Below are positions 3,632 through 58,737 of a DNA stretch of 58,766 nucleotides, piece after piece. The stretch comes from Candidatus Uhrbacteria bacterium (GTDB lineage Bacteria; Patescibacteriota; Patescibacteriia; 2-12-FULL-60-25), in assembly GCA_009691315.1 (NCBI GenBank), contig SICT01000001.1, forward strand, positions 1-58,766. The letters are read 5' to 3'. A program made the position numbers and the translations under genes. How positions within the stretch are numbered: the stretch's first letter is position 1; each line of letters starts with the position of its first letter. The notes beneath the pieces were generated by a model that was not told the origin of the DNA, did not search any database, and was given only the letters and a program-made list of their open reading frames with translations.

Positions 3632-3635
3632 AAAA

Positions 3636-4022: not shown

Positions 4023-4027
4023 ATAGA

Positions 4028-4381: not shown

Positions 4382-4412
4382 ATCAATGGTAATTCAGTGA
4401 AGAAGATGGAGT

Positions 4413-6242: not shown

Positions 6243-6248
6243 AGCGGT

Positions 6249-6635: not shown

Positions 6636-6661
6636 AGATGAGTGATGGACAATTCAGCCAA

Positions 6662-6778: not shown

Positions 6779-6803
6779 ATAATTTCCATCGTTAATAAGA
6801 GGG

Positions 6804-7037
6804 CTATAATCTATACGTTATGCGTCCCTTTGTCAAATCGTAGGGGGTCATCTCCAACTGCACATCATCTCCAGGAGTCAAGCGGATGCGATTCATTCTC
6901 ATTTTCCCTGATAAATAACACAAAATACTCTGACCGTTCTCCAGTTTAACGCGAAAGGTTGCGCCCGGAAGATTCTCTTCGATCGTCCCCTTCACCACCA
7001 AAAAATCCTTGCTGGGAGAAGAGCCTTTATCCGCCAT
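6804..7037 (-). CDS. infA: Translation initiation factor IF-1
   Basis: I trimmed the track ORF 6804-7202 to the ATG at 7037. The product MADKG...[64 protein letters not shown] is a full S1-like IF-1. Confidence 0.93.
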
Positions 7038-7107
7038 AGAAAAGTGTTTGAGACATGAAAAATGGAATGAACAAACAATACCAAAAAAAAAATCTGGCGT
7101 CAATGAC

Positions 7108-19297: not shown

Positions 19298-19395
19298 TAC
19301 ACAATGAGCGAGCGGAGACCAGAGACTGTTTCGTGGACTCACCGTGCAAACGGGGATGTCCAGGAAATAGGCTCTGGTAGGCCGCGAGACAACAG

Positions 19396-31722: not shown

Positions 31723-31783
31723 AGGTAGGAATATAAAAAGGGTAAAATAAGACCCGTCCTTCCAGAACGAGTCAATGGGCAAT

Positions 31784-31812
31784 AGGATAGGGGAAAAGGA
31801 AAAGCCTGTCAA
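31784..31812 (-). promoter_or_regulatory. Sigma-70-like promoter for the nusA operon
   Basis: The minus strand reads TTGACA-N17-TATCCT. Confidence 0.45.
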
Positions 31813-31832
31813 ATCTGCACTCACATATATTG

Positions 31833-32751: not shown

Positions 32752-35700
32752 CTAACCTATTGTTTCTGCACAAATATCATTAAAGATTACACAACCCACG
32801 GGACAATGAGGTGCTGAATACTCCTTACAATTTCTGAGTCCACAGTATGGATTGTTAACATCAGTATTAACACAACCAATGGGACAATTAGGTTTTTTGT
32901 ACGCACTGCAATTAGGTCCTGGTTGAGGTGTTTTGGACTTAAGATTCTCATCTTCCTGTGTTTGCAATTCACCACTTGAACGTAGTTGCAATGATCCTGG
33001 ATACACGATCCAAGGACGATAGTTCTGCGTATATCCACTATTCAAACTCTGAAAATCTGGATTTGTTGAATTGCATTCGTTATTCAATAGCCTACCGAAT
33101 GTTGCCCGCACCTCGTTAGTAGATTTAATTGTACCTTCTCGTATTCCATCAGCTAGTCCCCAAGAATAACAGCCACCATATGGATGTAAAACTTCATTAT
33201 CAGATCCATCATCCTGTAACTGATTATCTTTAATCTTGGTCCGACACTCTCCTGAACACCAGCCCCAATTATCTTGCAGCATAACGCGCGGAGTAAAGCG
33301 GCATGCATTTACTTTTTTATCCCAACAACCACGGTTTGGAGCCAATCCCGTTGGAATACAGATGTCCCCTGCTGCACAACGGAGTGGGATATTGCCTATT
33401 TCCTGTTGCGGTGTTGTACAACCGCGATTCGGATCTCGGGAACAACGTCCTTCCAAAAATTTCTTCGGTTCTTGCTGTTGATTCACAGGCCACTCAAATT
33501 CGCACGCGGGCAGATCGCCCGTGCCGCCGCAATAGTATTGGTGGCTGAATTCGAAATAATTGGGCTGGCAAGCCTCACCACTATTACCGAAGAACGTACG
33601 GTATATACATTGATCTTTAGCTTTGCCAATCGTGCAATCAGAGTCAGAATGACAAGTTTTGTATTGTTTTTTGGAACAGGTGCCGAGCGGCGCACAACGA
33701 CCCGCACCAGCGGGACAATCAACATCCGTATTGCAGGTGATTCCCCATCCGCGGATCGGATCATCACACTCGCTCTGAGTTGCGCAGAATGGTTTATGAT
33801 TTTTCAAGCTTGCATCAGCAATTTTTTGCTGAAACCCATCCCCCCAATCAACGGTCACGTTCTTGAGCGGCATCTGCTCATGACTGGCCCAACCATAAAA
33901 CTTGAGAGAGGCTTTATGCTGACCGCCAGCAGCATTCACAGCACCATCGGATTGACCATCAAAAGAGAACATATCTAAGCGTTGAATGGAGCATTGGCCA
34001 GGCGTGTCACACTTGCGGGCATCAGGTGCCGCAATCCGTGGTGGATGAGGGGTGTAGTAGGCAATGGTGTCAGTGAATTGCTGAATCCGAGGAACATCTG
34101 CTGGAATAGGATCATAGCCTAAAAATTGAGGGGTGTAGTGCCCAGGTGTGACATTGGTCGGAGGAAGGTTATCCGAAAGGAACGGATCCAAACCTTCTTG
34201 TTTGCCGTTTATGTTCTTCGTAAAATTATAAACTGTTAATCCGCACGATTCATCGCTTGGATCCGGACATTGTTTTATATCGGGTTGATATTCGGTTCCG
34301 GTCCATTGATATATGCGATAAATTTTGGCGAACAGATTTGTCAGATAGTGCCAAGATCTGCCATAAGGAGGGACATTGAGCTCAACGAATCCTTTTGGAT
34401 CATTTGGATCAGGCACTTTACAGCACGTTTCTTTTCGAAAGAAACTCCCGATTCCGGCACCCAAGAAAGTTGGTGGCTTCAGGGAAGAGAATCCAGCCAC
34501 ATTCCCACCGCTTTGGAACAACGGATCTGTTCCAGCCGGTCCGGTATTTAACGCGCTCGAAAATGGGGCGAAACGAGAACCATATTGAAATCCAACACCG
34601 GGAGCCGTAAAATTTCCGTTCTTCCACACACGATCGGTAAAAGCGGCATTTTGACGAGAGTCACGACTGATGACTTCCGCGAGTTGCGTACAAATACTCC
34701 CATAATTAACCTTGATATTCATATAGATATATCTCATATCATTTGCCTGACCTCCACAGGTCGAGACCCAAAATCCCTGTAAACTCCACGGGCCATTGAC
34801 AGCTTTAGACTGAAACACCCCCCGAATGGAAAAGTAAGGTTTATCACTGGTACATTTTTCCGTATAAGCAGTTGATCGAATATGACTTAATTGACGTTTG
34901 ACACTGCTGGCATCAGGCGGATCAAACGGTTTCAGCGAATCTTTAAAGAGAGAAATGAAGTTTGTTTGCCCGCTACTCCGATAATCCGTTTGCCAAGTCT
35001 TCATAAAGCACTTGCCTGGCTCATTCACACAATCCACTTCCAAAGGTTGCCCTTGAGATCCTTTGAACAGGGTATCAGCTCCTCGACCCAGAATAGGCTT
35101 ATAGTTCTCAAAAAATTTCTGTCGCCATTCCACATCCTTGGCCTTGGTGCTATCCCCTTCATTATAATCTACCTCCCCTAAGCCATCGACCCAGTCCGCT
35201 TGATATCCGCAGGCTAAACGGCCCATATCATTTGGATTTTCGATCGGGGAAATGCTGATATAGGCCAGGCTCTTATCTTTATTGTCCCCACCATTGAATT
35301 CTAGTATTGGTTTCTCCAATTGAAAAAATGTTTCGGTATAACTTTGATCTGGACTACTTCCAGCATCAACCAAACGTACAGCCGAAAGATCACGGTCATT
35401 GTCTCCCTCATCTTGATCATCATCTGCCAACTCACACTGCTCGGCGTTTGGACTGAATTCAGGACGATCCCCCACGAGCGAAGCACCTGGATATCCCCCA
35501 ACGGCCGAGTCTCTGCCATTTGATGTGAAATTATCATCGTAATTGAATTTGAACATACTCCCAGCATAATTAGAGTCTGGCTTACCTTCATTCTGCTTTT
35601 TTTCATCATGTTCACCAACAAAATCCACATCCGTTAAAGAACGCGCGCTCGGTGGATCAGCTTTTGATAAACAGTAGTACTGGCCTGAATTTTCTGGCGG

Positions 35701-38700
35701 GAAATAGCCGGCCGTCGGCACATAATGATAGGGATCTTTTTCCCCAAACAAAATTGGCGTTGGATTCCACGTTAAGCATGGGTGCTGAGTCACATCATCT
35801 CCAGTAATGCGTGTCATGTCGCGCTCCAAACATTGTCCAAAAATTCCGTTGACTATTTGCGATTTACGGAAAGCCACGCATCTCCCGCCTTGTTCCGGTG
35901 GTCCGCAGGTTTGAGAGGCATTAGACCCTTCAATCGCCAATTTCTGTGGATTTTTTGGATCTGTCTGCGGTATTTTAAATATCGCTTCCGGCAAACACGA
36001 CTGTCCGGCGCGCGGTCCGCCCGCGCACACCCCGGGCAAAACATGTGAAGAAAACACATCGTAAAACTTGATGATACCGGCATCTGGATATTCCACACGT
36101 TTATAACTGCAAGCACAATCTTCACCGTATTCACAGATGTTGGCTCCGGTAAAACTGGTTAACCGTTGTTTCGGTTGAGCAGGATTTTTGGACGTATCCC
36201 AATCAATCGCATACGAAGAAGGGAATGGAGCATCCGCTTCCGGATAAGCTCGACACTCCGCACTCGGAAATGCCTGACTCAAAGCCTGATCATGGGTTGG
36301 ATTAGGCTGAGCAAATTTTAAAGTCACATTCTGAAAATCTAAGCCAGTGTCTTTGGCATTGACCGCCACATAGCAAAGGAATGAACGGCCTGAACTTAAG
36401 GCTTGCAAGTATTCATTCAAACGATAATACCCAATTCTCCCAGTGCCAACATGCTTACACAAAAACAGTTGAGGATTCGCTTTAGACAACGGGTCTTCTT
36501 TATCGAGCTTGATTGCTTCATAGCTCTTGGGACTTGGGTTCAAAAGGAATTTATTTGGATTCTGAGGATCCACGATTACTGGGATGACAATAGCAGCGGC
36601 CAAACGATAATCCAAGGCAAACCGATATTTGTTATTTGCTACATTCCCTGCCCCATCCGCACCAGGTTTCGCCGTGGTCAGGTCCGGCACCTGAAATGAA
36701 TTCGGGATGGTGTAACCAGAATAATCATTTTCCCCCAAACCGATCCTCCGACTCGCGTATTGGTTGACGTCAAAGAATGCGCCGCGGGTCAGCGTTGGTT
36801 CCGTACTCGTCGTCGCACGATTCACATAATGTGCGCAGAAAATATCACCGTTCTCATGGCTCGCCTGATCGCATAACGCCAAATTCGTACAAATATCTTT
36901 ATATTTATTGCTGCTGCGATCAAACACTGTTTCGGCACTCTTACACCCCAACCACTGCGAACAATCACGATCCACGTTTACTTTAATCAACAAATTGGCA
37001 TCATTTTCTCTCGTTCCTCCAGGCTTACTGCACGATCCTGTAAAATCGTGGGTATGAGTCAATAAAACCGGGTTAATAATCTCTTTATCAACAATCTTAT
37101 AATTACATTCCGCATCCCGTTCACACACATTGCCTTCCCATGGATTGATCTTTGTATCCACAACCCCCAGAAAATTGGTCGTGACAATCGTTTCCTGTCC
37201 CTGACACTTCTTGGCTTGACAATTTGCATCCTTTGATCCCAAACAACTCACAGGCGTGGTGGGCGTAAACAATTGATCGCGATATTTTGCATAACTGGCA
37301 GACACGTTGTAACTCAATTGCGTATCACTCAAATTATTCAACAAGATACAGCCCTTCCCAACATCTACACTCCCATTACACGTGGCGGTATCAAATTTCT
37401 GCGGATCATAAATAAAGAAGTATGGCTTACCGGTTTTATGTGATGGATCTGATACATCATTTGGATCGCGCAATTCCGAACACTCCCCTTGATCCTGCGG
37501 ACACAACCCTCCCCATCCCTGATATTCCGTGTCACCTGTGCGCAGAAGATTAAACGTCTGACCGTTTTCCAAGACCAGCGGATAACACGGAAGCGTTGTC
37601 CCCTTCTCAAACCAACCAGAATAGGTACCGACCGCTAAATTTTTAATCCCTGAATTATCTCCGGTTAATGGAACATTCTCTTTATATTCACAGGTGTGAT
37701 TTCCTGGATCGCGGAAATATTCTTTTCCTCCGGTCGCCGGATTAAATTCCTGACAAAAAAGTTCAGATGGCCGGCACAAACCCTGATCGTATTTCGTAAT
37801 GTCATCTTTATAATAAACCGTGGCGAACGTGGATGTCGCATCCAAACTCAAACGATTTTGGGTATATTTTGGTTTTCCAAACGCCCGGCACGAGGCATTT
37901 TCTGGTTGACAATGTTTGCTCGGATCATCAATCAAATACAAATAGCGATCGGCCGAACGGGTGGTTGTTGCGCCACCAAATCCTGGAATCACTGGTTTGT
38001 CTTCCATAACGAATGTTTGTTCACCCGTGTCAGCTGAATTCCGCGTATCAATAAATCCAGTACAGCTGATCGCCTGTTGACGACACAAGCGCGAGAACTG
38101 ACGAATGTCTACTTTTTGCCCATCGCGCCGCTTGTATTCGCGACAACCTAGCATGGCTTGCGGTTGAGGGACTCCGCCTAATCCGGTATCACACTCATTC
38201 GGTGTCTTCCAAGTATTGGCTCGCACATAGGCCATATCCGGAATAAGAGTCACCGTTACTTCATCCAGATAAACAAGAGGCGTCGCAGCACTCCAAACGA
38301 GCGCGGTTAGCTTACTCCCACTCCAACCATTAAACGGACCCACCGAATATCTCTGCCAATCCGGTGTCAGATTCACCGTACCGACCACGGTCTTTTTTCC
38401 TAAATCTTTTGGATCTGCTGTTGATACGAACAATGGAACAGAGCTGGTCGCGGCTGGTCCTTTGGCCCAAAAGGTCACGCGGAATAAGTCGGTCGGAGTT
38501 GAAGTGACAGATACGCTCGCCTGTACAATCTTGTCTTGCGGCTTATTTTTTGCTGGGATCCGCAACGACGAATCACCGACTAAAAGTGATTCACTTGATT
38601 TTTCTCCACCGACAAACGCCCCAATCCCATCTCGAAAATTTTGTGCCAAGACCGTTTGCATGTTACCAGACTCTGCTCCCGCATAAGCGCGACAAGAAAT

Positions 38701-41700
38701 TGCTTGTGCACTACACACCCGACTTTCCGGGGCAAACAACGAATACACACACTCCCCTGTGGATGCCTGAAACGTTCCACCTGTTTTTTTACAGTCATCT
38801 ATATTCCGATTGTTCAAACGATAATCTTTACACTGATCCGTCGATAACACGGTCTGAGAATAATAACGATAAAAAACATGGCCATCCGCATCGTAAAATT
38901 GTCGGCAATCCGGATCAACGCCGCTCCGCCAATTGGCTTCACTACACGTTTTTGGGTCTTTAAAACTTACCTGATCTGGACCACGTTTGAGCAACAGAAG
39001 TGGCCCGCCAGCGACTTCCCCGGGCAAAACATTGGCATTTGGATCTTGCTTCATGCTCCAACTACGTAATTGAAATCCGGCGGTGTCTGATCCTTCCCAG
39101 GTAAAAAATGTTTTGGAATTTTTATCTGGCTTTTCACAGGCGCGTACATAACTATAGTAAGCCGTCCGCTCACCGCCACCTGCACTCGCCTCCACATTGG
39201 TAAATTCTTCACAACCGACTTGCTCCTGTGTACAGGCTTGAGCTGTGGCAGGAATAAAAAAGTCTGTCGCTGTGTCCGTAGGATCATCAAACTCTTTTAT
39301 ACTGTCATGTACCAAATCAAATGCTGACGGTTGTTTTCGATACTGGGCATAGCTGACACAGGTTTCCGGACAATAATCATTTGTACCGACAATCGCTGGC
39401 ACTTCTCCGCCTGCCAGCACATCGGTGTAGCCCTGACAGCCGGCTTCTGACTGACGACAGACTTGAGCAAATTTTGCACACAATGGATGATCCTTGCCTT
39501 CTCCACGGCAATTGAGATCTTCTGGCGCAAGTTTCATAAACGTCGCTGGCAAACTAGCATTCAACCCCGATGCAAATGGCGTAGCAAGCTCGCCTTCTTC
39601 CAATTGCAAAGCGTCTAGTAAGGCTGGCGAATTTTTATCATCTTGAGATAAGCTCATCACCGCGAAACGTGCATTGGCCGCGCTCAAAAAACTACATTCA
39701 TAGCGTCGCCAGTCTGTCGTAAGAGCCGGATGAGCACGTAAATCAACACTCTCAACTCCGAGTCCAGCTGGTTCACAGCCCGAACTACGAAAATCTTTAA
39801 TCGTAGCCGCCTTATCTATCATCAAATTTTTCTCCGTATATTGAATGATCTGCGCTTTAAATGATTCATTGCCCCCATCTTTTGTTCCACGTGCATAGAC
39901 AGAGAAGGTATACATGCGTCCGGAAGTAATTGCCATTTTTTGAATAATCGTTTTACCAAGCGACAACTCTAAAGCAGAGGCTGTATCAAATGAGGCCGTT
40001 CCACTCGCGACTTGGGGAATCGTGAAAGGGGTACCCGGCGACCAATTGGCCAGAGTTGGGGTCGATGTCCCAACGGCATTTTCAAATGAAGGATTCTGAA
40101 TCAGATTTAAGGCTGAATCACCAATTTGAAATGAATGGACCTTCGTACAACCTTCGTCTGATCCAGAACATGGCGCCAACGTCTTATCAAAGTAGATACG
40201 TGGGCCGGTTGAGGTCGTTCCCACCCACGCATCCGTACTTGTACTCAAAGCATTGCGCGTCGTCGCATACCACAAACATCCGACATTGCTAGCATCACAC
40301 GTTCCGTAATCCAACGTATTGCGCAGATAGGAAATCGCCCCGCCTCCAGGAGCTTGATAATTGCGACAGCTGGAAAAACGTGCCGGACATTCTTCGGCCT
40401 GAAAACGATAAACCGTTTTTTCTGCCATGCAGTAACCATAACCGCCCGTACACTCACCTTGATTGTTCCGCTTAAGACAGGTTTGAATGTCCTGACACTC
40501 TTCCCGACGCTGATTGATAGATGGAGATAAAAGCGTATCGCCAAAACCAGACAGCGTGCATTGTTGAGGAAACGACGTGATGACCCAGTTCGCATCAATC
40601 AAATGACACCATGGATATTTGGCATCACGCTGGCCCTGCGGATTGCACACGGAAAATCCTTTCACAACTTCAGACAACGTGGCACAACCACTAGAAGAGT
40701 TACACAAAGCCTGATTTTCCGCCGAATTCGCCGCCAGCTCAAATCCCACAGACAAAATACGCGCCAGTCGTAATTTCTGCAGATTGCCCGCACAGTAAGC
40801 TGTGTTAAAACAGTTCGGATCCTGATTCAGCTTGGTCATGCTGGTTGGAATCAGTCTGCGCGATCCATCCAAGAAACCTTTGCCCATCGCTTCGCCAACC
40901 GTAAAAGATCCCTGCTCACCCTGGCTCTGGACGGCCTGAATGAATTTTTGATCAATCGTACAATTCCACAAACCACGATAATCACTTGGACAACCTGAGA
41001 ACTCCGATACCACATCCACTTGCGCGACTTTTTGCAGGTTGGGCGTCTTCAAATCAATGTTCGCCGCACGCGCATCGGTTTTTCCTGCCGTCACAATCGC
41101 ATCTGGATTCGCCGCGACGTTCTGCCGCACGGCATCGGAATAATCAAAGGCACCGGTAAACCCTTTATCAAAAATGCGCTTCATGAATTTGGAAGCAAGC
41201 GTGTTCAAAAAAACCGAAGCCGTATAACTCGCCAACTGGATCGGACCTTCTTTAAACGCATTGCCCAAAATCGCTCCGGTTTGCGCAATCTGCGAAGCAT
41301 TGCCTTTTCTCACCGTTTCTTCTTTTGTCGCTTCAGACACGACTTCGCTCGGCGTTTTGACATTGCCTGAAATAATCCCGGAGACATCTTTAAACCCTTT
41401 GCCAACCTCACGTTCTTTCGTCGCAAAGGATACGGCATCCGTTGTTTTTAAAGTGACAGAATTCAAAATATTTACCGTGGCCCCAAGCTCACTCGTATTC
41501 GTATTCAAATTAAAATCAATCGTCGGATAGGTTTCCGCTTTTGTTAACGACGAGCCAAATGAATTCCAATTGTTAATCACATTCTGAAATTCACATTTTG
41601 GTTTTTGCGGTGAGTACTGCCCCTGACCAACACCAGACTGCGGGAAAAAATTACCCAGTGACAATTGGATCTTCAGCAGGTTGCTGGTATTGGGCTTACA

Positions 41701-42141
41701 CAAATTAAATCCAATATTCTTAAAAAATTCTGAATCTGACAATGAACCCATGGCCTCGCCCACCGCATCCTTGCCCACATCTGTCATGTTTTTCGCAAAA
41801 TTTTTGGTAAAAAACTGTGCCCCCTGACCCTTGCCACCTGACACAATATAGTTCGCCGCTTCATAGGCAAGACGACCTACTAAAAGCTGGGCCGCATTAA
41901 AAAAAGCCACAACCAGAGCACGGGTAATCTGAGAAATGATCGTCTTATAAGTGCTGTTAGCTGTTTCTGGCAGGTTGGCCATAACTGCACTTGGCATACC
42001 AACGCCAGTAACCGGCGGAGCATTCTCCGGCTGAGCTAACGCAAACTCTACAGATGGGCCGGCTAAACTCACACAAACAACCATAACAATCAACACCGAT
42101 TGCATGGCGCGAAAAAAAATCGAAGAGCGATTAATCTTCAT
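32752..42141 (-). CDS. Giant (3129 aa) secreted cysteine-rich surface protein with CBM4/9-like jelly-roll modules
   Basis: It is a single uninterrupted ORF with an N-terminal signal or anchor (SVLIVMVVCVSLAGPSVEFALA). A CBM-like module starts ...NLIQNPSFENAVG... and ends ...LLDALQLEEG (aa ~678-855). A second beta-sandwich-like module lies at aa ~1163-1300 (...YLDEVTVTL). A VTVDWGDG motif lies near the C-terminus. Cys is extremely frequent after aa ~380. Confidence 0.85.
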   Translation of the reverse strand: MKINRSSIFFRAMQSVLIVMVVCVSLAGPSVEFALAQPENAPPVTGVGMPSAVMANLPETANSTYKTIISQITRALVVAFFNAAQLLVGRLAYEAANYIVSGGKGQGAQFFTKNFAKNMTDVGKDAVGEAMGSLSDSEFFKNIGFNLCKPNTSNLLKIQLSLGNFFPQSGVGQGQYSPQKPKCEFQNVINNWNSFGSSLTKAETYPTIDFNLNTNTSELGATVNILNSVTLKTTDAVSFATKEREVGKGFKDVSGIISGNVKTPSEVVSEATKEETVRKGNASQIAQTGAILGNAFKEGPIQLASYTASVFLNTLASKFMKRIFDKGFTGAFDYSDAVRQNVAANPDAIVTAGKTDARAANIDLKTPNLQKVAQVDVVSEFSGCPSDYRGLWNCTIDQKFIQAVQSQGEQGSFTVGEAMGKGFLDGSRRLIPTSMTKLNQDPNCFNTAYCAGNLQKLRLARILSVGFELAANSAENQALCNSSSGCATLSEVVKGFSVCNPQGQRDAKYPWCHLIDANWVITSFPQQCTLSGFGDTLLSPSINQRREECQDIQTCLKRNNQGECTGGYGYCMAEKTVYRFQAEECPARFSSCRNYQAPGGGAISYLRNTLDYGTCDASNVGCLWYATTRNALSTSTDAWVGTTSTGPRIYFDKTLAPCSGSDEGCTKVHSFQIGDSALNLIQNPSFENAVGTSTPTLANWSPGTPFTIPQVASGTASFDTASALELSLGKTIIQKMAITSGRMYTFSVYARGTKDGGNESFKAQIIQYTEKNLMIDKAATIKDFRSSGCEPAGLGVESVDLRAHPALTTDWRRYECSFLSAANARFAVMSLSQDDKNSPALLDALQLEEGELATPFASGLNASLPATFMKLAPEDLNCRGEGKDHPLCAKFAQVCRQSEAGCQGYTDVLAGGEVPAIVGTNDYCPETCVSYAQYRKQPSAFDLVHDSIKEFDDPTDTATDFFIPATAQACTQEQVGCEEFTNVEASAGGGERTAYYSYVRACEKPDKNSKTFFTWEGSDTAGFQLRSWSMKQDPNANVLPGEVAGGPLLLLKRGPDQVSFKDPKTCSEANWRSGVDPDCRQFYDADGHVFYRYYSQTVLSTDQCKDYRLNNRNIDDCKKTGGTFQASTGECVYSLFAPESRVCSAQAISCRAYAGAESGNMQTVLAQNFRDGIGAFVGGEKSSESLLVGDSSLRIPAKNKPQDKIVQASVSVTSTPTDLFRVTFWAKGPAATSSVPLFVSTADPKDLGKKTVVGTVNLTPDWQRYSVGPFNGWSGSKLTALVWSAATPLVYLDEVTVTLIPDMAYVRANTWKTPNECDTGLGGVPQPQAMLGCREYKRRDGQKVDIRQFSRLCRQQAISCTGFIDTRNSADTGEQTFVMEDKPVIPGFGGATTTRSADRYLYLIDDPSKHCQPENASCRAFGKPKYTQNRLSLDATSTFATVYYKDDITKYDQGLCRPSELFCQEFNPATGGKEYFRDPGNHTCEYKENVPLTGDNSGIKNLAVGTYSGWFEKGTTLPCYPLVLENGQTFNLLRTGDTEYQGWGGLCPQDQGECSELRDPNDVSDPSHKTGKPYFFIYDPQKFDTATCNGSVDVGKGCILLNNLSDTQLSYNVSASYAKYRDQLFTPTTPVSCLGSKDANCQAKKCQGQETIVTTNFLGVVDTKINPWEGNVCERDAECNYKIVDKEIINPVLLTHTHDFTGSCSKPGGTRENDANLLIKVNVDRDCSQWLGCKSAETVFDRSSNKYKDICTNLALCDQASHENGDIFCAHYVNRATTSTEPTLTRGAFFDVNQYASRRIGLGENDYSGYTIPNSFQVPDLTTAKPGADGAGNVANNKYRFALDYRLAAAIVIPVIVDPQNPNKFLLNPSPKSYEAIKLDKEDPLSKANPQLFLCKHVGTGRIGYYRLNEYLQALSSGRSFLCYVAVNAKDTGLDFQNVTLKFAQPNPTHDQALSQAFPSAECRAYPEADAPFPSSYAIDWDTSKNPAQPKQRLTSFTGANICEYGEDCACSYKRVEYPDAGIIKFYDVFSSHVLPGVCAGGPRAGQSCLPEAIFKIPQTDPKNPQKLAIEGSNASQTCGPPEQGGRCVAFRKSQIVNGIFGQCLERDMTRITGDDVTQHPCLTWNPTPILFGEKDPYHYVPTAGYFPPENSGQYYCLSKADPPSARSLTDVDFVGEHDEKKQNEGKPDSNYAGSMFKFNYDDNFTSNGRDSAVGGYPGASLVGDRPEFSPNAEQCELADDDQDEGDNDRDLSAVRLVDAGSSPDQSYTETFFQLEKPILEFNGGDNKDKSLAYISISPIENPNDMGRLACGYQADWVDGLGEVDYNEGDSTKAKDVEWRQKFFENYKPILGRGADTLFKGSQGQPLEVDCVNEPGKCFMKTWQTDYRSSGQTNFISLFKDSLKPFDPPDASSVKRQLSHIRSTAYTEKCTSDKPYFSIRGVFQSKAVNGPWSLQGFWVSTCGGQANDMRYIYMNIKVNYGSICTQLAEVISRDSRQNAAFTDRVWKNGNFTAPGVGFQYGSRFAPFSSALNTGPAGTDPLFQSGGNVAGFSSLKPPTFLGAGIGSFFRKETCCKVPDPNDPKGFVELNVPPYGRSWHYLTNLFAKIYRIYQWTGTEYQPDIKQCPDPSDESCGLTVYNFTKNINGKQEGLDPFLSDNLPPTNVTPGHYTPQFLGYDPIPADVPRIQQFTDTIAYYTPHPPRIAAPDARKCDTPGQCSIQRLDMFSFDGQSDGAVNAAGGQHKASLKFYGWASHEQMPLKNVTVDWGDGFQQKIADASLKNHKPFCATQSECDDPIRGWGITCNTDVDCPAGAGRCAPLGTCSKKQYKTCHSDSDCTIGKAKDQCIYRTFFGNSGEACQPNYFEFSHQYYCGGTGDLPACEFEWPVNQQQEPKKFLEGRCSRDPNRGCTTPQQEIGNIPLRCAAGDICIPTGLAPNRGCWDKKVNACRFTPRVMLQDNWGWCSGECRTKIKDNQLQDDGSDNEVLHPYGGCYSWGLADGIREGTIKSTNEVRATFGRLLNNECNSTNPDFQSLNSGYTQNYRPWIVYPGSLQLRSSGELQTQEDENLKSKTPQPGPNCSAYKKPNCPIGCVNTDVNNPYCGLRNCKEYSAPHCPVGCVIFNDICAETIG

Positions 42142-48880: not shown

Positions 48881-49402
48881 ATGAAGCGATATCTGATAAT
48901 CGGCCTCGTCTCCGCTGTCACCCTGTTCGCCGCACTCAAGGCTGGCCCGCTCAAGGCGGAACGTCCAGCTGATCGAGCGGTGGTGGCATTGTTCTGCTCA
49001 GACTCCAGGAATGGACGATTCAAGCAAGATCTGGAAACCCATCATCCGGGATTCGTGGAGCACAACGTCCACGTCTACGAACACCAGGTCCCCGGATCGG
49101 CTATCTACGACATCATCCATGCTCACCCGGCCGTTCGGGAGCATGTGATCGAACAGATTACCATCCTACTAAGAAAGGCTCAGAAAGAGGGCGCTTCGGC
49201 TGCCATTGCCCTGGCCTATCATGAAAAGTGCGCTCGCTACCCCCAAGGCCATGAACAGGAACAGGAACGAGACGGCCTCGCAGCAAAGCATTTGCTCGAG
49301 GATCGTCTCAAGGATCTGCACCCGCAGATCCTCCTGTACAAGGCACATATGGATGATTCTCATATCACCGAGATCGAAATCATCGAACGGCCACGGCCGT
49401 GA
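48881..49402 (+). CDS. Beta-carbonic-anhydrase-like protein 1 (signal/TM anchored), highly divergent
   Basis: FCSDSR (C39-x-D41-x-R43) and HEKC (H114-x2-C117) match the C-x-D-x-R ... H-x-x-C zinc-site pattern of the beta-CA fold. The N-terminus is hydrophobic and the gene is GC-rich. Confidence 0.5.
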   Translation: MKRYLIIGLVSAVTLFAALKAGPLKAERPADRAVVALFCSDSRNGRFKQDLETHHPGFVEHNVHVYEHQVPGSAIYDIIHAHPAVREHVIEQITILLRKAQKEGASAAIALAYHEKCARYPQGHEQEQERDGLAAKHLLEDRLKDLHPQILLYKAHMDDSHITEIEIIERPRP

Positions 49403-51204: not shown

Positions 51205-53209
51205 ACGTCTCAACTTTGCGTGTTTTAGATTCTTCCATGTAAACCTCAAAGCGATCACCAATGGCAATTTTTGTTTTTCCTTTAAATGATAGTCCGCATT
51301 CCTGTCCAGCACTGACTTCTTTCACGACGGATTTTCCAGATTGTAACGATTCCAAAATCCCTTCGCCGACCGGCTCTTGACCACGCCATACGCGAACCTT
51401 AGCCCCGGCCAATAATTTTCCTGTTTTCACTTTCGCGCCCAAAATCATTTTTCCCGGATCGGTGCGAAACACGGCGGCAATTTCCGCTTCGCCAAGGGCT
51501 GTCACAATCAATTCTTGTGGCAAAAGTCTATTTAAGCGCGCCACCACATCATCAAACAACTCATAAATAATTTTATAACTCTTGATTTCTACCCCCTTGT
51601 CTCGCGCATCACTTTCAATGGCTGCAGGCGTCATCACATTAAATCCATACACGACAGAGGGTTTGGCATTTGCTGCGCGTTCAATATCTGATTCCGTCAC
51701 ATTGCCTAAACCCTTTTGAATGACGTCTGTCCCGACGAGTTCATGTTTAATTTTTTCCAACATGCCAAGCAACGCTTCAAGCGAACCTAATACGTCGGTT
51801 TTCAAAACAATATTTAACGTAATTTTTTTGTTCGCGGTTTCTTCTTCCGTTGGTACCGCTTTCGTGGCCGTGAATGCTTCTGCTACCTGACGCGAGGTTT
51901 TGGCTTTTTTCTGTTCGAGCATTTTTGGATCTTCTGGTACTTCCAAAATATCTCCCACCGCTGGCGCGACTTTAAATCCTAAAATTTTCACTGGCATACC
52001 TGGCCCCGCCTCATCGACCATGGCACCTGTCCAATCACGCATGGCACGCACGCGACCATACGCAGCACCGGCAATGCCTAAACAATCATTACGATGAAGG
52101 GTTCCCGTTTGCACGAGCACCGTCGCGACTGGACCCTCGCCTTTATCCACATGCGATTCAACAATCGTTCCGGCGGCTTTGCGTTCCGGATTAGCCATGA
52201 TGTGATCTTTTTCGACTTCAGCCACGAGCAAAATTAAATCCAATAATTCTGGAATGCCTTGTCCGGTTTTAGCCGAAATTTTTGTCATGGGTGTTTTTCC
52301 TCCCCACTCTTCAACGGTGACACCGATTTCCGCCAATTGTCCCATGACGCGATTAGGATCCGCTTCCGGTTTATCAATCTTGTTCAATGCGACCACGAAC
52401 GGAAGTTTGGCCGCTTGAATAATCTGTACAGCTTCTTTTGTTTGAGGTTGAACACCATCATCAGCTGCAACAACCAAGATCGCAATGTCAGCGACCTTCG
52501 CACCACGTGAACGCATGACCGTAAACGCTTCATGGCCAGGCGTGTCGATAAACGTAATCTTTTTTCCATTTTTTTCTGTTTGATATGCCCCGATGTGTTG
52601 TGTAATCCCTCCAGATTCTTTTTCCATCACATGCGTTTGACGAATCGCATCAAGCGTACGCGTTTTTCCGTGATCCACATGACCCATCACCACGACCACT
52701 GGCGCACGCGGCACAAGATCCTCCGTTTTTTCCTGTTCCAGTAAAGATTTGATGCGATTGGTTGATTCCTCCTCTCCCGCTTGCTCACTCGCTAATACAG
52801 ATTCCGGATTAGCTTTAAATCCAAGTTCCTCAGCAATGATGGCCGCCGTTGTAAAATCAATGCGCTCATTTTGTGACGCGAGAATTCCGGCACGCATCAA
52901 TTGTTGAATCACACGTGTAACAGGCAAACCGAGTTTTCCCGCAAAATCACGCACGCTCAATACCGATGGCAAAGCCACTTCTGTTTTTACGACAGGCGCT
53001 CCGCTTGGATCCACGGTCGATGATCGAACGAGTTGATCTCGTAAACGCTCACGCCGTGCATTCTCCAACCACTTTTTATAAATTTGATCTGCCACCCGAT
53101 CATCCACTTTTATGGCCCGCCCGCCAATATCAAAACCAAGCGCTGGCAATTTTGTCAGCAATTCATTTGGCGTGATACGCAGTCGTCGAGCGAGTTCTGT
53201 AACATTCAT
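51197..53209 (-). CDS. infB: Translation initiation factor IF-2
   Basis: The G domain motifs are GHVDHGKT...DTPGH...NKID. The start is set at the ATG at 53209 ([12 protein letters not shown]..., the usual IF-2 N-terminal helix). An alternative ATG at 53254 would add 15 aa. Confidence 0.92.
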
Positions 53210-53252
53210 GGGTCGCTTGATTCTAAATGGATTTGATGGTTTAGTCAATGTC

Positions 53253-53966
53253 ATGAACGGCTTTCTCTTAATCGATAAACCCGGCGGGATCACCTCGCAT
53301 GATGTTGTGGATGCGGTACGGCGCGTGGCTGGCATCCGTGCGGTTGGTCATGCGGGAACCCTTGATCCGTTTGCCACCGGACTCTTAATTTTAGGCCTTG
53401 GTCCAGCCACAAAAAAACTTGGTGAGTTGATTGGTCTCGACAAAACCTATGAAGCAACACTGACGCTCGGCGCGACCAGTGATACGTTTGATCGGGATGG
53501 AGTGATTACGGTAGGGGCGCACCCAAGCGTGCGCCCCTCGGCCGACCGATCAGGGCAGACACATGGGTCTGCCCCTACCGAGTCAGAGATCGAATCCGTT
53601 CTCGATCAATTCCGCGGGGGTTACGATCAACGGGCACCAATTTTTTCGGCCAAAAAAATCAAAGGAAAAAAACTCTATGAACTGGCACGAGCTGGAACGG
53701 CAACAGAAGAGATGCGTCCGATCAAGCATGTGACAATCAGCGAACTTTCGATACTCGATGCCCAATACCCAATACTACGTCTCCGCATCGTTTGTTCTTC
53801 TGGTACGTACATTCGTTCTCTCGCTGATGACATTGGGCGTGCGCTTGGTGTTGGCGCCTATCTCTCCGAACTTCGTCGAACATCCATTGGAACCTGGTCT
53901 GTGAATAACGCAATTCCTCTCAAAAATCTCAACAAATCTGATCTAGACAAAATTCTCATAAAATGA
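53253..53966 (+). CDS. truB: tRNA pseudouridine(55) synthase
   Basis: I trimmed the ORF to the ATG at 53253. MNGFLLIDKPGGITSHDVV...VGHAGTLDPFATGLL contains the catalytic Asp motif, and ...CSSGTYIRSLA.D.G is also present. Confidence 0.92.
   Translation: MNGFLLIDKPGGITSHDVVDAVRRVAGIRAVGHAGTLDPFATGLLILGLGPATKKLGELIGLDKTYEATLTLGATSDTFDRDGVITVGAHPSVRPSADRSGQTHGSAPTESEIESVLDQFRGGYDQRAPIFSAKKIKGKKLYELARAGTATEEMRPIKHVTISELSILDAQYPILRLRIVCSSGTYIRSLADDIGRALGVGAYLSELRRTSIGTWSVNNAIPLKNLNKSDLDKILIK
53510..53579. repeat. GC-rich nested palindromic element lying in frame within truB
   Basis: The outer arms ggtagggg/cccctacc enclose two hairpins, ggggcgcac-N6-gtgcgcccc and gggcagac-N6-gtctgccc. The element encodes ~VGAHPSVRPSADRSGQTHGSAP. 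Confidence 0.75.
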
Positions 53967-54162
53967 TACGCTCTGCTTACTGAATTATTATTAACGAACC
54001 GGTTGCGTCAGGAGATAGATTCCAAAGGTTGTTCTTCGTTTAAACTCAATTAATGTGTTCCAGATGTCCAGGATTCATAACAAAAAACACCAAATAAATT
54101 GACCCTCTCACTAGAGGAGAGTTTTAAGCGAAAAAAATCAAGACGCGCCGACGTTTCATTCT

Positions 54163-55695
54163 ATGAATAACATCTTATTGGTTATTTTGACACTTATTGG
54201 TGCCGCGATTGGGATTGCGGTTGGATATACTGTGCGCGATGGTAAAGGCAAACGTGATGCGGCCAATGCCGAGTCAAAAGCGCATGACATTGTGAAGCAA
54301 GCAGAGGAAAAACAGGTAGAAGTTTTGCAAAAAGCTAAAGAAAAAGCCATCAAAATTTTAGAGGATGCGCGGTTGGAAGAAAAACGTGTACTTGAAGAAC
54401 TCAAGACACAACAGCTTGAATTGATTGAACGTGAAAAAACATTTAGCAAACAGTTGCTGGCAATTGACGAGAGCAAGGCTACGGTCGATGCTATTAAAAC
54501 CAAGTTGACCGAAGAAACGGCGCGCGTCGAGTCACTCAAACTAGAAGAATTAAAAAAATTAGAAGAGGTTTCTGGCCTGACCAAGGAAAAAGCCTTAGAA
54601 CGCGTCATCAGCTCGGTTGAGGTTCAATATCAAGATGATTTGATGGGACGCTTGCGTAAGTTGGATGAAATGGCAGCAGATGAAATTGACCGAAAAGCAA
54701 AAAATATTTTAGCCTTGGCCGTTCAACGTCAAGCGTCTTCGCATGTGGCGGAAACGACCACAACACATGTGGAAATTCCAAGCGAAGAAATGAAGGGACG
54801 TATTATTGGACGCGAAGGACGTAACATTAAAGCGATTGAATTGCTCACCGGTTGTGAACTCATTATCGATGACACACCTGGCGTGGTCACCGTTTCCGGT
54901 TTCTCCCCAATTCGTCGACAAGTTGCCCGACGTGCACTTGAAAAATTGATCACCGATGGCCGCATTCATCCCGGACGCATTGAGGAATTTGTCGAGGAAT
55001 CCAAAAAAGAATTAGCTCTTGATATTAAAAAAGCCGGTGAAGATGCACTGTTTCAATTGGGAATTTCTATGGCTGGCATTGATCCAAAGCTCATTCAAAT
55101 TTTGGGTCGTTTAAAATATCGCACCAGCTACGGACAAAACGCCCTCATGCACTCGATGGAAGTGGCGAATCTTGGAGCCCTGCTCGCCGAAGAGCTTGGA
55201 GCGAATGTTTCCGTGTGCAAAAAAGGCGGGTTATTCCATGATGTGGGTAAAGCCGTGGATCACGATATGCAAGGAAGCCATCCAGAACTCGGTTATCAAA
55301 TCATGAAAAAATTTGGTTTTCCAGAAGAAATTTGTTATCAATCCATCAGTCATCACGAAGATAAACCGAAAACGATTGAGGGCGTCATTGTCAAAGCCGC
55401 TGATGCGATTTCCGGTGCCCGTCCTGGCGCACGCAAAGACTCGCTCGAATTTTACGTGAAGCGTTTGGAAGAATTGGAAGCCGTAGCCACATCATTTGAA
55501 GGAGTCGATAAAGTCTATGCCATTCAAGCCGGTCGTGAGATTCGCGTGTTTGTGAATCCAAAAGCGATTGATGATTTCTCTTCCGTCAAACTCGCCCGTG
55601 ACATCGCCAATAAAATTGAAGCAGAATTAAAATATCCTGGCGAAGTCCGTGTAACGGTCATCCGCGAAACCCGCGTGATCGAATACGCAAAGTAA
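54163..55695 (+). CDS. rny: Ribonuclease Y
   Basis: It has an N-terminal TM helix, a coiled-coil, a KH domain (IIGREGRNIKA) and an HD domain (...LFHDVGKA...SHHED...). Confidence 0.93.
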   Translation: MNNILLVILTLIGAAIGIAVGYTVRDGKGKRDAANAESKAHDIVKQAEEKQVEVLQKAKEKAIKILEDARLEEKRVLEELKTQQLELIEREKTFSKQLLAIDESKATVDAIKTKLTEETARVESLKLEELKKLEEVSGLTKEKALERVISSVEVQYQDDLMGRLRKLDEMAADEIDRKAKNILALAVQRQASSHVAETTTTHVEIPSEEMKGRIIGREGRNIKAIELLTGCELIIDDTPGVVTVSGFSPIRRQVARRALEKLITDGRIHPGRIEEFVEESKKELALDIKKAGEDALFQLGISMAGIDPKLIQILGRLKYRTSYGQNALMHSMEVANLGALLAEELGANVSVCKKGGLFHDVGKAVDHDMQGSHPELGYQIMKKFGFPEEICYQSISHHEDKPKTIEGVIVKAADAISGARPGARKDSLEFYVKRLEELEAVATSFEGVDKVYAIQAGREIRVFVNPKAIDDFSSVKLARDIANKIEAELKYPGEVRVTVIRETRVIEYAK

Positions 55696-55708
55696 ATCCA
55701 AACCTGCC

Positions 55709-57703
55709 ATGCAGAAAATTCAGAAATACACTCTCCTATTGGTGAGTGTTCTTGCTCTGCAATCCATCCTCCAGACCATTTTTTATTATCTTGGATGGCA
55801 TTTGGGATGGATGACGGATGTGGGAAGCTTCGTTTTGAGTTTGGGAATTCTTATTCTCGTTCTCAAGCGTCACGGGTCCTGCCACGGCGCCACCCACTCC
55901 GTACTCGTCCCGCGACGGGACTCCGTGCTGAGCGGGGCCCGTCGCCGTGTCACCCGTGATGTCGTATTTCTCCTTCTATCTGTTTTAGTGACGATTTTCA
56001 TCCTCTGGACCACGATTACGCACGCCACAACAGAATCCATCCGCACCCCTTGGCCCTTACTTGGATCGGCAACGTTGATCGCTCTCGCTATTTCTTTTTT
56101 AAGTTTGATTTTAGTTGCGTGGAAATCCCGTTCGATCATTTGCACCGCTTTCGCAAGCACCCTCACAATCATGAGTGTGACATTCATCACGCCGCTCCTA
56201 TACAAACTTGGCTTTGGCTTTGATGGTTTCCTGCATCGTGCCAGCGAAAATATTATATTACAAACCGGCACGCTCGATCCGCATCCTGCTTACTATATTG
56301 GTCAATATGTATTTGTCACCTGGCTTTCGCGCGTGACAACCATCCCGCTCCATTTCATGGACATCTGGCTTGTCCCGCTCGCGGCTCTCCTTATCCCCTT
56401 CTTTTTGTTGTTGATGGATCTTCCCTCATCATACAAACGCGTGATGCTCGTCACACTTCCACTTCTCCTTCCATTCACACCATTGATCGTCACCACTCCA
56501 CAATCTTTTGCCTATCTGCTGGGCTTTTTTGCCCTTTGTACTGCTTTAGGATATCGATCAAACCAACTCCCTTTGATCGTTCCCCTGTCACTTGTTGCTT
56601 GGTCACTCGTCACACACCCTCTCGCCGGAATTCCATTTTTGGGAGCCGTGATCGGCATTTTACTCATGGCAACGGGTGAGGCATCCCTGCATCGCGAGAC
56701 TGCGGGCAGCGAGCAGGGCGGGGATGCCTCACCCGTTGCACGACAGCTTGTTTATCTTGCCATCATTATTTTAACATCCGCCACGATTCCCCTTCTGTTT
56801 TTCTTTACCAATGGTTTTTCTTTTCACTCATACTCGATCCTTAATACTTTATACTCAATACTCACGCCACCGATCATCCACGTTTCTTTTTGGATCGATT
56901 GGTCCGCATTTATTGATTATCTGTTCCCATTCATGCTGATCTTGCTCGCGTTCTTTTCACATAAAAATCGACAAGCCTGTTTTCTTCTTTTTCTTGGTCT
57001 TGGAATGACCGTCGCGAGTCTTATCCTGAAAGCCACCGGCAATTTCTCCTTCTTGATTGATTATGAACGCTCAAACTACGCAGATCGATTATTGATTCTG
57101 GCACAGCTCTTTCTCCTCATTCCTGCGTTGATTGGAAGCACTACAATCATTCATCAATGGAAACGCATCTCAATCTTTCCTGTCGCCTTCTGCTTGATCA
57201 TCCTCGCCGCTTGGTTTTCTGCGCGTGCCTATTTCACTTTTCCACGCCATGATGCCGCAATCACCGGTCATGCTTGGAGCATGGGACAAGCGGATATCGA
57301 TGCCGTACGCTGGATAGAACAAAATGCCCAAGGCAAACCCTACACGGTGCTAGCCAATCAATCAGTCAGTGCCGCAGCCATCCAAGAATTTGGATTTAAA
57401 CGGTACACGGATAAAAATATTTTTTATTATCCGATTCCAACGGGTGGCCCTCTCTATCAACACTTTCTTGAGGCGAGCAGCGTAAACCCTCAGAATGAAC
57501 ACGCCACACAGCAAGCGATACGACAAGCTTCGCAACTCGGAAAAAGTGACTTGGTCTATGTAGTGATAAATAATTATTGGTGGGATGCCGAAAATGTAAA
57601 CAGGTGGTTATCCCATATCACCACTGACCCTGTTGGTGTAATCCGAAATGGGAAAATACGTATTTATGAGTTTGATCTTAGCAATCCTAATATCTTCTTT
57701 TGA
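55709..57703 (+). CDS. Large polytopic membrane protein with a C-terminal soluble domain (GT-C-like architecture, function unknown)
   Basis: The 664-aa product has many TM helices and ~150 soluble C-terminal residues. It lies beside a GT4 gene. The family assignment is by architecture only. Confidence 0.55.
   Translation: MQKIQKYTLLLVSVLALQSILQTIFYYLGWHLGWMTDVGSFVLSLGILILVLKRHGSCHGATHSVLVPRRDSVLSGARRRVTRDVVFLLLSVLVTIFILWTTITHATTESIRTPWPLLGSATLIALAISFLSLILVAWKSRSIICTAFASTLTIMSVTFITPLLYKLGFGFDGFLHRASENIILQTGTLDPHPAYYIGQYVFVTWLSRVTTIPLHFMDIWLVPLAALLIPFFLLLMDLPSSYKRVMLVTLPLLLPFTPLIVTTPQSFAYLLGFFALCTALGYRSNQLPLIVPLSLVAWSLVTHPLAGIPFLGAVIGILLMATGEASLHRETAGSEQGGDASPVARQLVYLAIIILTSATIPLLFFFTNGFSFHSYSILNTLYSILTPPIIHVSFWIDWSAFIDYLFPFMLILLAFFSHKNRQACFLLFLGLGMTVASLILKATGNFSFLIDYERSNYADRLLILAQLFLLIPALIGSTTIIHQWKRISIFPVAFCLIILAAWFSARAYFTFPRHDAAITGHAWSMGQADIDAVRWIEQNAQGKPYTVLANQSVSAAAIQEFGFKRYTDKNIFYYPIPTGGPLYQHFLEASSVNPQNEHATQQAIRQASQLGKSDLVYVVINNYWWDAENVNRWLSHITTDPVGVIRNGKIRIYEFDLSNPNIFF
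55870..55959. repeat. GC-rich concentric-palindrome element in frame within the membrane-protein gene
   Basis: The nested arms are tcacgggt/acccgtga (55870-77 / 55952-59), cacggcg/cgccgtg (55883-89 / 55943-49) and a central gtcccg-cga-cgggac (55907-21). The element encodes HGSCHGATHSVLVPRRDSVLSGARRRVTRD. Confidence 0.7.
56669..56739. repeat. GC-rich element with 19-bp perfect inverted arms in frame within the membrane-protein gene
   Basis: The arms gcaacgggtgaggcatccc and gggatgcctcacccgttgc are separated by 33 nt. By my count 50 of 71 nt are G+C. The element encodes ~ATGEASLHRETAGSEQGGDASPVA. Confidence 0.8.
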
Positions 57704-58737
57704 TACTCCTCAGGATCATGTTGTTTCGCGATTTCGTACATACGTTCTGATTGTTGACGGTACCCAACAGGATCTTTCGTCAACCGTTCGATTGATTCCA
57801 CCCAAGCGGACACATCATAAAACGTCACGCACCACGTCGACTCTCCCAGAGTTTCCATGATGCCACCAAGATTGGAAGCGATGAGCGGAAGACCAACGGA
57901 GGCCGCTTCTAAAATCACGGTTGGTTGATTTTCTACAATTTGTGATGGTACGAGCAGGATATCTGCTTGTTTCATTTTTTCTAAGACTTGATCAGACGCC
58001 AGAGCGCCAAAATATCTTACCTGTGCTCCAACCTGTTTGATCCTCTCACGATCTGGCCCATCACCCACGATCCATAATTCATAGGCTGACGATAATTTTT
58101 GTCCTAACTTGATCAACACATCACTCCCCTTTTCTTTCGAGATATGACCGACGAAAAGCAAACGGATCGGCGTATGCGGCACATGTCGATCAACGTGTTT
58201 GATTATGGGCCCAGGATTTGGCAAGACGATTGCCTGTGATTTTTTTCGATTGATGACACCACGACGCTCGTGCTGTTTTAACAACCATTCCGTTGGTGAG
58301 ATAACAATCTCTGGATTCCCTAGATACGTCACCCGCATCACTCCCCAAAAAATTTGCCACGGAGTGATCGTTCGTTCATCTTGCAACTGTCCAGATGGCT
58401 CAAATAGCTGAACATCATGCAACACATGGATCCATTGAATCTTGTGTGCTTGAATCGCTCGTGGCGTTCCGAATCCGCAGCCCGTCAAATTATGCGTGAG
58501 CAAAACATCGGGTTTCCAAGCAAGCATCTCGTTGACCGTTTGTTCCTGCGCTTTTAAATCCTTCAGATGATGTTTGAGCCGCGACCATGCGCCATCTTGC
58601 AACCATGAACAATCCGGTGACCAAACACGAACTTCGTGATCGGCTTGCTTTAGCATCTCCACCTGCCGTTCCGCGATCTGCGCCGCCCCACCTTGATGAA
58701 CGGGCGGGTAGGCATTTGTTAAAACGGCGACGCGCAT
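57664..58737 (-). CDS. Glycosyltransferase family 4
   Basis: The start is MRVAVLTNAYPPVHQGGAAQ... and the C-terminal region ...PSQIVENQPTVILEAASVGLPLIAS is the E-x7-E-like region. Its 3' end overlaps the convergent membrane-protein gene by 40 nt. Confidence 0.85.
   Translation of the reverse strand: MRVAVLTNAYPPVHQGGAAQIAERQVEMLKQADHEVRVWSPDCSWLQDGAWSRLKHHLKDLKAQEQTVNEMLAWKPDVLLTHNLTGCGFGTPRAIQAHKIQWIHVLHDVQLFEPSGQLQDERTITPWQIFWGVMRVTYLGNPEIVISPTEWLLKQHERRGVINRKKSQAIVLPNPGPIIKHVDRHVPHTPIRLLFVGHISKEKGSDVLIKLGQKLSSAYELWIVGDGPDRERIKQVGAQVRYFGALASDQVLEKMKQADILLVPSQIVENQPTVILEAASVGLPLIASNLGGIMETLGESTWCVTFYDVSAWVESIERLTKDPVGYRQQSERMYEIAKQHDPEEYQKKILGLLRSNS

Follow-up and report, generated by a model that had tools for sequence, protein, structure and literature searches.

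The truB gene of Candidatus Uhrbacteria contig SICT01000001.1, all 58,766 nucleotides of which (the window) were analyzed here, contains within its reading frame a GC-rich palindromic block that we identify from its sequence as a REPIN-like pair of inverted, GTAG-tagged repetitive extragenic palindromes (REPs), with the tags facing outward in the arrangement termed an "HH heterodimer." We consider it probable (roughly 0.7) that this REP pair occupies a single permissive loop of TruB, where it is translated as a disordered stretch of the protein, and that it has spread through REP-type mobilization in the lineage together with recombination of alleles already carrying it (filled alleles). A first-pass annotation, made from the letters of the window alone, had drawn attention to the block and had suggested that it could represent a new family of mobile palindromes tolerated in coding regions.

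Anatomy and classification of the truB block

The sequence at 53510-53579 is identical to that quoted in the first-pass annotation and has a GC content of 72% (0.71 in the 70-nt segment 53515-53584), versus 0.507 for the truB gene and 0.472 for the whole 58.8-kb window. The nested palindrome described there is real. The whole composite hairpin (53509..53580; 72 nt including a closing C/G pair; −46.2 kcal/mol), which encodes TVGAHPSVRPSADRSGQTHGSAPTE, has outer arms of 28 nt (53509-53536 and 53553-53580) that are 79% complementary and 16 nt apart. Nested in it are two inner hairpins, the first (53513-53522/53529-53538) with 10 bp that are 100% complementary and a 6-nt loop, and the second (53553-53563/53564-53574) with arms that are 91% complementary. 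The minimum free energy (MFE) structure of the composite is one long hairpin, and folding of 91 nt of RNA gave an MFE of −51.6 kcal/mol against a shuffle mean of −29.9 (z = −6.36), with 0 of 200 shuffles as stable. When the whole window was scanned in 80-nt segments (mean −14.8, standard deviation 5.9), the truB stretch ranked second at −46.7, the top rank being held by 56661-56740 at −55.8. There was no Rfam match to the block at the gathering threshold, the sole sub-threshold match in 53200-57800 being a meaningless miRNA match to the hairpin at 56667-56741.

The 68-nt GTAG...CTAC core (53511-53578) is composed of two REP units and a spacer. REP unit 1 (53511..53538, + strand, 28 nt) has a GTAG head and a 10-bp stem, AGGGGCGCAC/GTGCGCCCCT, closed by the 6-nt loop CCAAGC, the plus strand reading GTAGGGGCGCAC-CCAAGC-GTGCGCCCC(T). 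REP unit 2 (53553..53578, − strand, 26 nt) is inverted and reads GTAGGGGCAGAC-CCATGT-GTCTGCCC on the minus strand, with an 8-bp perfect stem (8-9 bp) and again a 6-nt loop. The 14-nt spacer between them (53539..53552, CGGCCGACCGATCA) holds a small CGGCCG palindrome, and in the predicted fold CGGC pairs with the downstream CCGA region. The GTAG tag itself lies at 53511-53514 and its complement CTAC at 53575-53578; the only direct repeat flanking the element is the dinucleotide CG (aCG-GTAG...CTAC-CGag), which is expected by chance.

The assignment of these units as REPs is based on the GTAG head, the GC-rich stems of 10 and 8 bp, the 6-nt loops, the unit lengths of 28 and 26 nt and the outward tags, all of which agree with the definition of Di Nocera et al. 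(2013, BMC Genomics 14:522; PMC3733652), who catalogued the GTAG and CGTC REP superfamilies along with their dimers and intragenic copies. Both units are inside the limits of that study (20-40 bp, with stems of 5-13 bp and loops of 2-20 nt for GTAG REPs), in which "HH" dimers have their tags outward and their bodies facing and frequently combine two stem variants as heterodimers. The same authors reported that some REPs are located wholly within open reading frames (ORFs), that more than half of these are dimers coding for 20-30 aa in frame, and that the truB genes of other bacteria are among the recipients (PMC3733652). Since both the kind of element and the recipient gene were thus already described, and each half of the block is a canonical GTAG REP unit, the proposal of a new family without a described equivalent is not supported.

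The Opitutus terrae families GTAG-17, GTAG-18 and GTAG-19, among others in PMC3733652, are alike in having a GTAG head, a GC-rich stem, a short loop, an HH heterodimer arrangement and in-frame coding. The window differs in that the Patescibacteria are outside the eight phyla surveyed there and in its stem type, GGGGCGCAC/GGGCAGAC. In addition, that survey contains neither the clade-wide, repeated occupation of one loop nor the recombinational swap of filled alleles, both of which are seen here. A common location in the protein was considered for the truB REPs of PMC3733652 and rejected, as these are at other positions (residues 10-16 in S. maltophilia, 169-177 in S. alaskensis and 164-190 in E. 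litoralis).

An inverted REP pair with a short spacer forming a single long hairpin is also the architecture of REPINs (REP doublets forming hairpins), the elements mobilized by REP-associated tyrosine transposases (RAYTs; Bertels and Rainey, 2011, PMC3116915; Nunvar et al., 2010, PMC2817692). The likeness extends to the GTAG tag, a known RAYT recognition feature, and to stems that are kept with compensatory changes. However, REPINs are defined as extragenic, whereas the window copy is coding, and the window contains no RAYT gene and a single intact dimer.

The first-pass annotation had compared the block with the palindromic elements of Rickettsia (RPEs), reportedly described by Ogata and colleagues in 2000 and 2002 as RPE-1 to RPE-8, and the comparison is sound with regard to behavior, the truB block being in frame at a fold-compatible coil site. 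RPEs are likewise palindromic repeats that lie in frame within genes of a reduced genome, give rise to surface loops on translation and are passed on at orthologous sites. They are about 100-150 bp in length, richer in AT, and not known outside Rickettsia. The 68-nt size, 72% GC and GTAG tag of the truB block argue against membership in this group. The R. conorii truB gene carries RPE-1, and some RPE classes belong to the CGTC rather than the GTAG superfamily (PMC3733652). Two organellar systems are more distant parallels: the hairpin-forming inverted repeats in reading frames of Nematomorpha mitochondria (PMC6649704), which differ in sequence and origin and in that both arms code for conserved protein, and the GC clusters of yeast mitochondria, which also form hairpins in reading frames but are of other sequence and origin.

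The unit type is present in other genomes (L088, L069, L054, L063 and L051) and in the IMG/VR contigs L168-L175. Among the contigs sampled, GTAGGGGC-type units occur extragenically at gene ends in the related Patescibacteria contig L088, where they are multi-copy in 20 kb, and also in contigs of Omnitrophota (L069), Chloroflexota (L054, L063) and deltaproteobacteria. Two scans of IMG/VR identified the same two-unit composite, a GCGCAC unit with a GC(A/G)GAC unit, in seven contigs of 59-65% GC. Two IMG/VR contigs of ~63% GC have it within the reading frame of a phage protein, where it forms part of the linker joining the portal and Mu-F domains (L169:3102-3156 in ORF 2536-5085, − strand, and L174:6611-6665 in ORF 6009-8336, − strand).

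The TruB loop and its occupants

The truB gene (53253..53966, + strand, as given in the ORF list; probable start ATG at 53253) encodes a tRNA pseudouridine-55 synthase of 237 aa. The protein is of the short Patescibacteria form, with Pfam matches to TruB_N and TruB_C_2, and a phmmer search against the PDB matched it to the TruB structures 1sgv, 1k8w and 1r3e (E 1e-36 to 1e-40). Its nearest relatives are annotated as TruB of the Patescibacteria group (top identity 69%) and the homologs of a 664-aa membrane protein encoded near truB are annotated as Candidatus Uhrbacteria, in agreement with the earlier deduction that the host belongs to the candidate phyla radiation. The window protein and its relatives are ~215-240 aa in length versus 309-327 aa for solved bacterial TruBs, which makes the window form ~75-90 aa shorter; the C-terminal part that is absent may include the PUA domain.

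The truB ORF reads through the block in frame and without stops, as had been noted for this palindromic repeat, giving ...DGVIT-VGAHPSVRPSADRSGQTHGSAPT-ESEIESVLDQFRG with ...TSDTFDRDGVIT as the preceding peptide; the junction-spanning peptides predicted from this frame are DGVITVGAHPSVRPSADR and SGQTHGSAPTESEIESVLDQFR. The TruB structures of E. coli, M. tuberculosis and T. maritima can be aligned to either flank of the block and are 12-17 residues shorter across it, supporting the view in the first-pass annotation that this site is a short connector in other TruBs. In an AlphaFold2 model of the window protein built with 50 homologs (mean predicted local distance difference test score, pLDDT, 91), residues ~88-109 are coil with pLDDT values of 52-76, falling below 50 at residues 91-93, and are flanked by a strand (85-87) and a helix (110-118). 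The 23 aa encoded by the element are accordingly modeled as a floppy, low-confidence coil loop at the protein surface.

Loop lengths in other TruBs were obtained from two kinds of search. A scan of genome contigs with a TruB alignment returned, among the matches listed, distant TruBs (≤51% identity) that serve as a loop-length baseline only, while a metagenome scan with the single TruB protein returned at least six relatives at ~60% identity or more, and close relatives were fetched individually. The segment from the conserved T-x-D to F-R-G is 42 aa in the window versus 27-28 aa in most of 116 bacterial TruB loci among the matches listed, and none of the ~60 non-Patescibacteria loci with a readable loop listed by the genome-collection scan exceeds 32 aa. 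Among the 114 nearest homologs the loop ranges from 27 to 47 aa and is at least 32 aa in 35; insertions recur at no other internal site of the protein alignment.

The ends of the element leave a recognizable footprint in protein sequences. Only two readings of GTAGGGGC are open, VGA and [CRSG]RG, since the third frame contains TAG, and GCCCCTAC reads APT, xPY or xPL. Around 25 homologs have such frame signatures, many of them in the form VGA...AP(T/L). Overall, ~40% of the nearest homologs have some palindrome-derived loop, these belonging to several families, and ~60% have a plain (empty) loop, with presence and absence being patchy among close relatives.

At the DNA level, GTAGGGGC...GCCCCTAC was found at the same truB loop in eight independent assemblies, namely the window and L081, L082, L083, L089, L164, L166 and L176. 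The core lengths in the latter seven are 70, 55, 29, 47, 52, 67 and 66 nt, respectively, and the interiors vary. The loop is encoded by 84 nt when empty and 87-129 nt when filled, and ~25 nt of the native loop are absent wherever the element is present; the positions of the element junctions vary between truB copies (−2, 0, +6 and +7 nt). In the window the element mostly replaces a native loop of ~9 aa for a net gain of 14 aa, so that the clean indel of ~22-24 aa expected from the first reading was not borne out by the homolog alignment.

Hairpins unrelated to the GTAG REPs are present at the same TruB loop in L016, L088, L096, L122 and L155 (AT-rich), including one of −100 kcal/mol (z −9.6) in L016 and one with GGACCAT-repeat arms (−65 kcal/mol) in L122. 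The loop peptides VIPAKAGI and DSRFHGND, in the homologs P0091 and P0077 (for which only the peptide is available), match the translations of CGTC-1 REPs given in PMC3733652. Within small sub-clades, such as that of P0037, P0044 and P0071, descent is clearly vertical, with point mutations. As a separate observation, the hairpin arms in L016, L096, L122 and L155 are short tandem repeats (GGACCAT, TGAACAA, TTGTTATA) with a base composition like that of the host genome.

Conservation, exchange and origin of the element

The nearest homolog, L176, carries the same composite, GTAGGGGCGAACCCATGCGTTCGCCC-TCCGGCCGGCCTGA-GGGCAGACACGTGGGTCTGCCCCTAC. Between the window and L176 the element is identical at 58/66 positions (88%), the remainder of the gene at 420/610 (69%) and the third codon positions at 36/85 (42%). 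In L176, 7 nt are inserted ahead of the element and 2 nt each are missing from the spacer and from the stretch behind the element; as a result the element is in different frames in the two genes and the encoded peptides, VGAHPSVRPSADRSGQTHGSAPT in the window and GRGEPMRSPSGRPEGRHVGLPL in L176, are unrelated. One stem pair is altered on both sides, from GCGCAC/GTGCGC to GCGAAC/GTTCGC. Based on the 88% identity of the element despite its different reading frames, we take it to be conserved, or recently homogenized, as nucleic acid, with the peptide held only to an open, in-frame state.

The frame is kept across the loop at every TruB locus in which both flanking motifs are present, including loci found by tblastn that did not come from gene calling. 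One TruB locus has a single in-frame stop, for which an alternative genetic code is possible. This retention of frame, along with the frame-restoring indels in L176, argues from the sequences that the segment is translated and tolerated.

In a neighbor-joining tree of TruB, computed with the loop masked, filled and empty alleles appear as close sisters. One pair of truB genes, L164:1080-1781 (filled, SRR23592405) and L165:5186-5860 (empty, SRR23592399), comes from groundwater samples; the two genes are ~98.7% identical outside of one patch (8/604 differences) but have 62/98 differences inside it. This patch of ~98 columns bears the element and also spans ~20 nt upstream and ~28 nt downstream of it, and its downstream flank is identical at 21/33 positions to the sibling versus 27/33 to L082 and L167. 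Since the divergence is confined to the patch, and the flank is closer to other lineages than to the sibling, the comparison indicates that this allele segment was imported by homologous recombination and is not a transposition event.

In the explanation that we favor, a non-autonomous repeat of REP/REPIN type occupies, and has mostly taken the place of, the DNA coding for one solvent-exposed TruB loop. The element would be a selfish or neutral passenger whose translation into a disordered loop rich in Gly, Ala, Pro, Ser and Arg is presumably tolerated by TruB. It may have arrived in truB by REP-type transposition (RAYT/HUH-like, through a single-stranded hairpin) or, alternatively, through import of a pre-filled truB allele by homologous recombination. 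Its persistence could be due to the loop being the only place in a small, essential-type enzyme where such sequence is permitted, intergenic space being nearly absent from the genome, and a resident hairpin probably favors later replacement by other hairpin elements.

Several points weigh against this explanation. Neither a RAYT nor any other Y1 transposase (PF01797) was detected among the ~45 window ORFs scanned with Pfam, and we know of no RAYT in Patescibacteria. The 58.8 kb of the window contain one intact dimer, in truB, and one degenerate hairpin, too few to indicate a high copy number in the genome; in L081 and L082 there is no further copy within ±10 kb of the truB copy. The degenerate hairpin (GGTAGGGGC...GCCCGTACC, 14212-14240; 14205-14247 folds at −14 kcal/mol) is in frame, immediately ahead of the part coding for the catalytic domain, in a polysaccharide deacetylase gene (13704-14726, − strand) and may be a decayed REP remnant, similar to the 29-nt minimal form in L083. 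A clean-insertion model was rejected because no pair of empty and filled truB alleles with an exact insertion and target duplication was found, and transposition into truB was thus not directly seen. Lastly, the use of a single loop and the 88% identity of the element across genes that are 69% identical could point to a selected hairpin.

This last point is the basis of the leading rival, namely that truB retains the hairpin under selection as a cis-acting structure of its RNA or DNA, such as a sub-domain translational pause, an RNase target on the truB mRNA or a recombination or replication signal, for which REP-like sequence was the raw material. It would account for the finding that in ~40% of the clade unrelated hairpins recur at precisely this loop and at no other position of the protein, and for an element whose DNA is 88% identical, versus 42% at neutral sites, with a compensatory stem change and differing frames. 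It is harder to reconcile with the ~60% of close relatives that have a plain loop, with near-identical strains with and without the element, and with the same composite being found in contexts as unrelated as the phage portal-MuF linker and extragenic sites; moreover, similar hairpins are present in the loops of an unrelated membrane protein and there is no match to an Rfam family. We therefore regard selection of the hairpin as unlikely, though it is the strongest of the rivals.

A single ancient insertion in the ancestor of the clade, followed by vertical inheritance and neutral decay, with the present diversity due to drift and losses, is less probable still. Neutral DNA is expected to be ~42% identical between the window and L176, not the 88% of the element; the junctions vary (−2, 0, +6, +7 nt); hairpins from no fewer than four unrelated families are present at the site; and the tree has filled and empty sister pairs as well as a recombination patch among them. 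These facts outweigh the outer termini common to the same loop in genes just 60-69% identical and the vertical descent with point mutations of sub-clades of the P0037/P0044/P0071 type, both of which a single insertion would readily explain.

Non-translation of the segment, by excision from the mRNA or by ribosomal bypassing as for the "byp" GC-cluster elements of some yeast mitochondria, is suggested by the presence of so stable a hairpin (−46 to −52 kcal/mol) inside an ORF. Patescibacteria are known for unusual insertions in their rRNAs. However, the variants examined, including the tblastn-found loci, keep the frame without stops (the locus with a single in-frame stop excepted), and compensating indels restore the frame in L176, a constraint expected only if the ribosome reads the segment, and we consider non-translation very improbable. 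While template-switch mutation can perfect quasi-palindromes, formation of the palindrome in place by template switching or slippage, or as an assembly artifact, is effectively refuted by the same REP units and two-unit composite in many independent assemblies and unrelated loci.

A broader proposal, which we advance tentatively as possible though not likely, is that in Patescibacteria this TruB loop, and perhaps loops of other core proteins, are maintained landing or exchange sites for hairpins, in which the nucleic acid is kept by selection or by hairpin-targeted insertion, the peptide drifts even between frames, and filled alleles move by recombination. If true, REP-like palindromes would systematically diversify the protein loops of these reduced genomes, in both length and sequence, and might be shared with their phages.

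Searches of the literature on CPR/Patescibacteria for palindromes, REPs or REPINs returned nothing relevant. Several observations thus extend the literature searched, namely the occurrence of such repeats in this phylum, the filling of one TruB loop across a clade by hairpins of several families, the retention of the element's sequence irrespective of reading frame, the patch that points to recombination, and the presence of this composite in the linker of a phage protein. We consider these observations to be worth a short note rather than the announcement of a new class of element, and their practical consequences are modest. For annotation, odd peptides of the VGA...APT type in Patescibacteria proteins should be seen as footprints of GTAG REPs, not as new motifs, and should not be modeled as conserved structure. 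Our results also suggest that in the Patescibacteria, whose genomes have very little intergenic space, REPs persist chiefly where a coding loop permits them, and that recombination spreads the filled alleles. As one loop of a small, assayable enzyme occurs naturally with and without the element, TruB is a tractable case for asking whether REPs are no more than selfish elements or owe their retention to the hairpin.

Other hairpins and features of the window

The first-pass annotation had also pointed to two further elements downstream of truB. Both are real, in frame and of the same style, but they are not of the same family as the truB element. They are located in the gene for the 664-aa protein mentioned above, a multi-pass membrane protein of Uhrbacteria type with no Pfam match, in loops between predicted transmembrane stretches. 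The first (55869..55958, + strand; 90 nt, −46.9 kcal/mol) is a GC-rich hairpin encoding RHGSCHGATHSVLVPRRDSVLSGARRRVTRD in the first variable loop, a hypervariable region in which several homologs have other palindrome-like peptides. The second (56669..56740, + strand; 72 nt, −56.1 kcal/mol) is a near-perfect hairpin with a 22-bp stem and the termini GCAACGGGTGAGGCATCC.../...GGATGCCTCACCCGTTGC; it encodes ATGEASLHRETAGSEQGGDASPVA in an inter-helix loop and adds ~13-15 aa that are in none of ~57 homologs. The termini of the pair (CACGGGT.../CAACGGGTGAGG...) have ACGGGTGA/TCACCCGT in common rather than GTAG, and on this basis we assign them to a different family from the truB element. No more copies of the ACGGGTGA/TCACCCGT family were detected within the window.

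Two other stable structures were noted. A double hairpin at 49261-49337 (−44.7 kcal/mol), which is not notably GC-rich, is inside a 173-aa ORF (48881-49402) that has no Pfam match and lies upstream of a pair of carbonic-anhydrase-like genes; the structure may be a further coding hairpin or, should the ORF be spurious, a structured RNA. A hairpin of −45.5 kcal/mol at 19311-19390, with no Rfam match, is situated at and just upstream of the 5' end of a gene for a VirD4/TrwB-like coupling protein (17261-19342, − strand).

Among the remaining genes of the window, SecD has an internal peptidyl-prolyl isomerase (rotamase) domain (27581-29626 and 30430-31824 are listed for SecD and NusA), and the match to the NusA N-terminal domain covers 173 residues versus the 119 positions of the profile, which suggests another insertion, of ~50 aa. 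A giant ORF of 3129 aa (32752-42141, − strand) has only a sub-threshold match to CBM_4_9, and a similar giant gene is present in the same neighborhood of L082.

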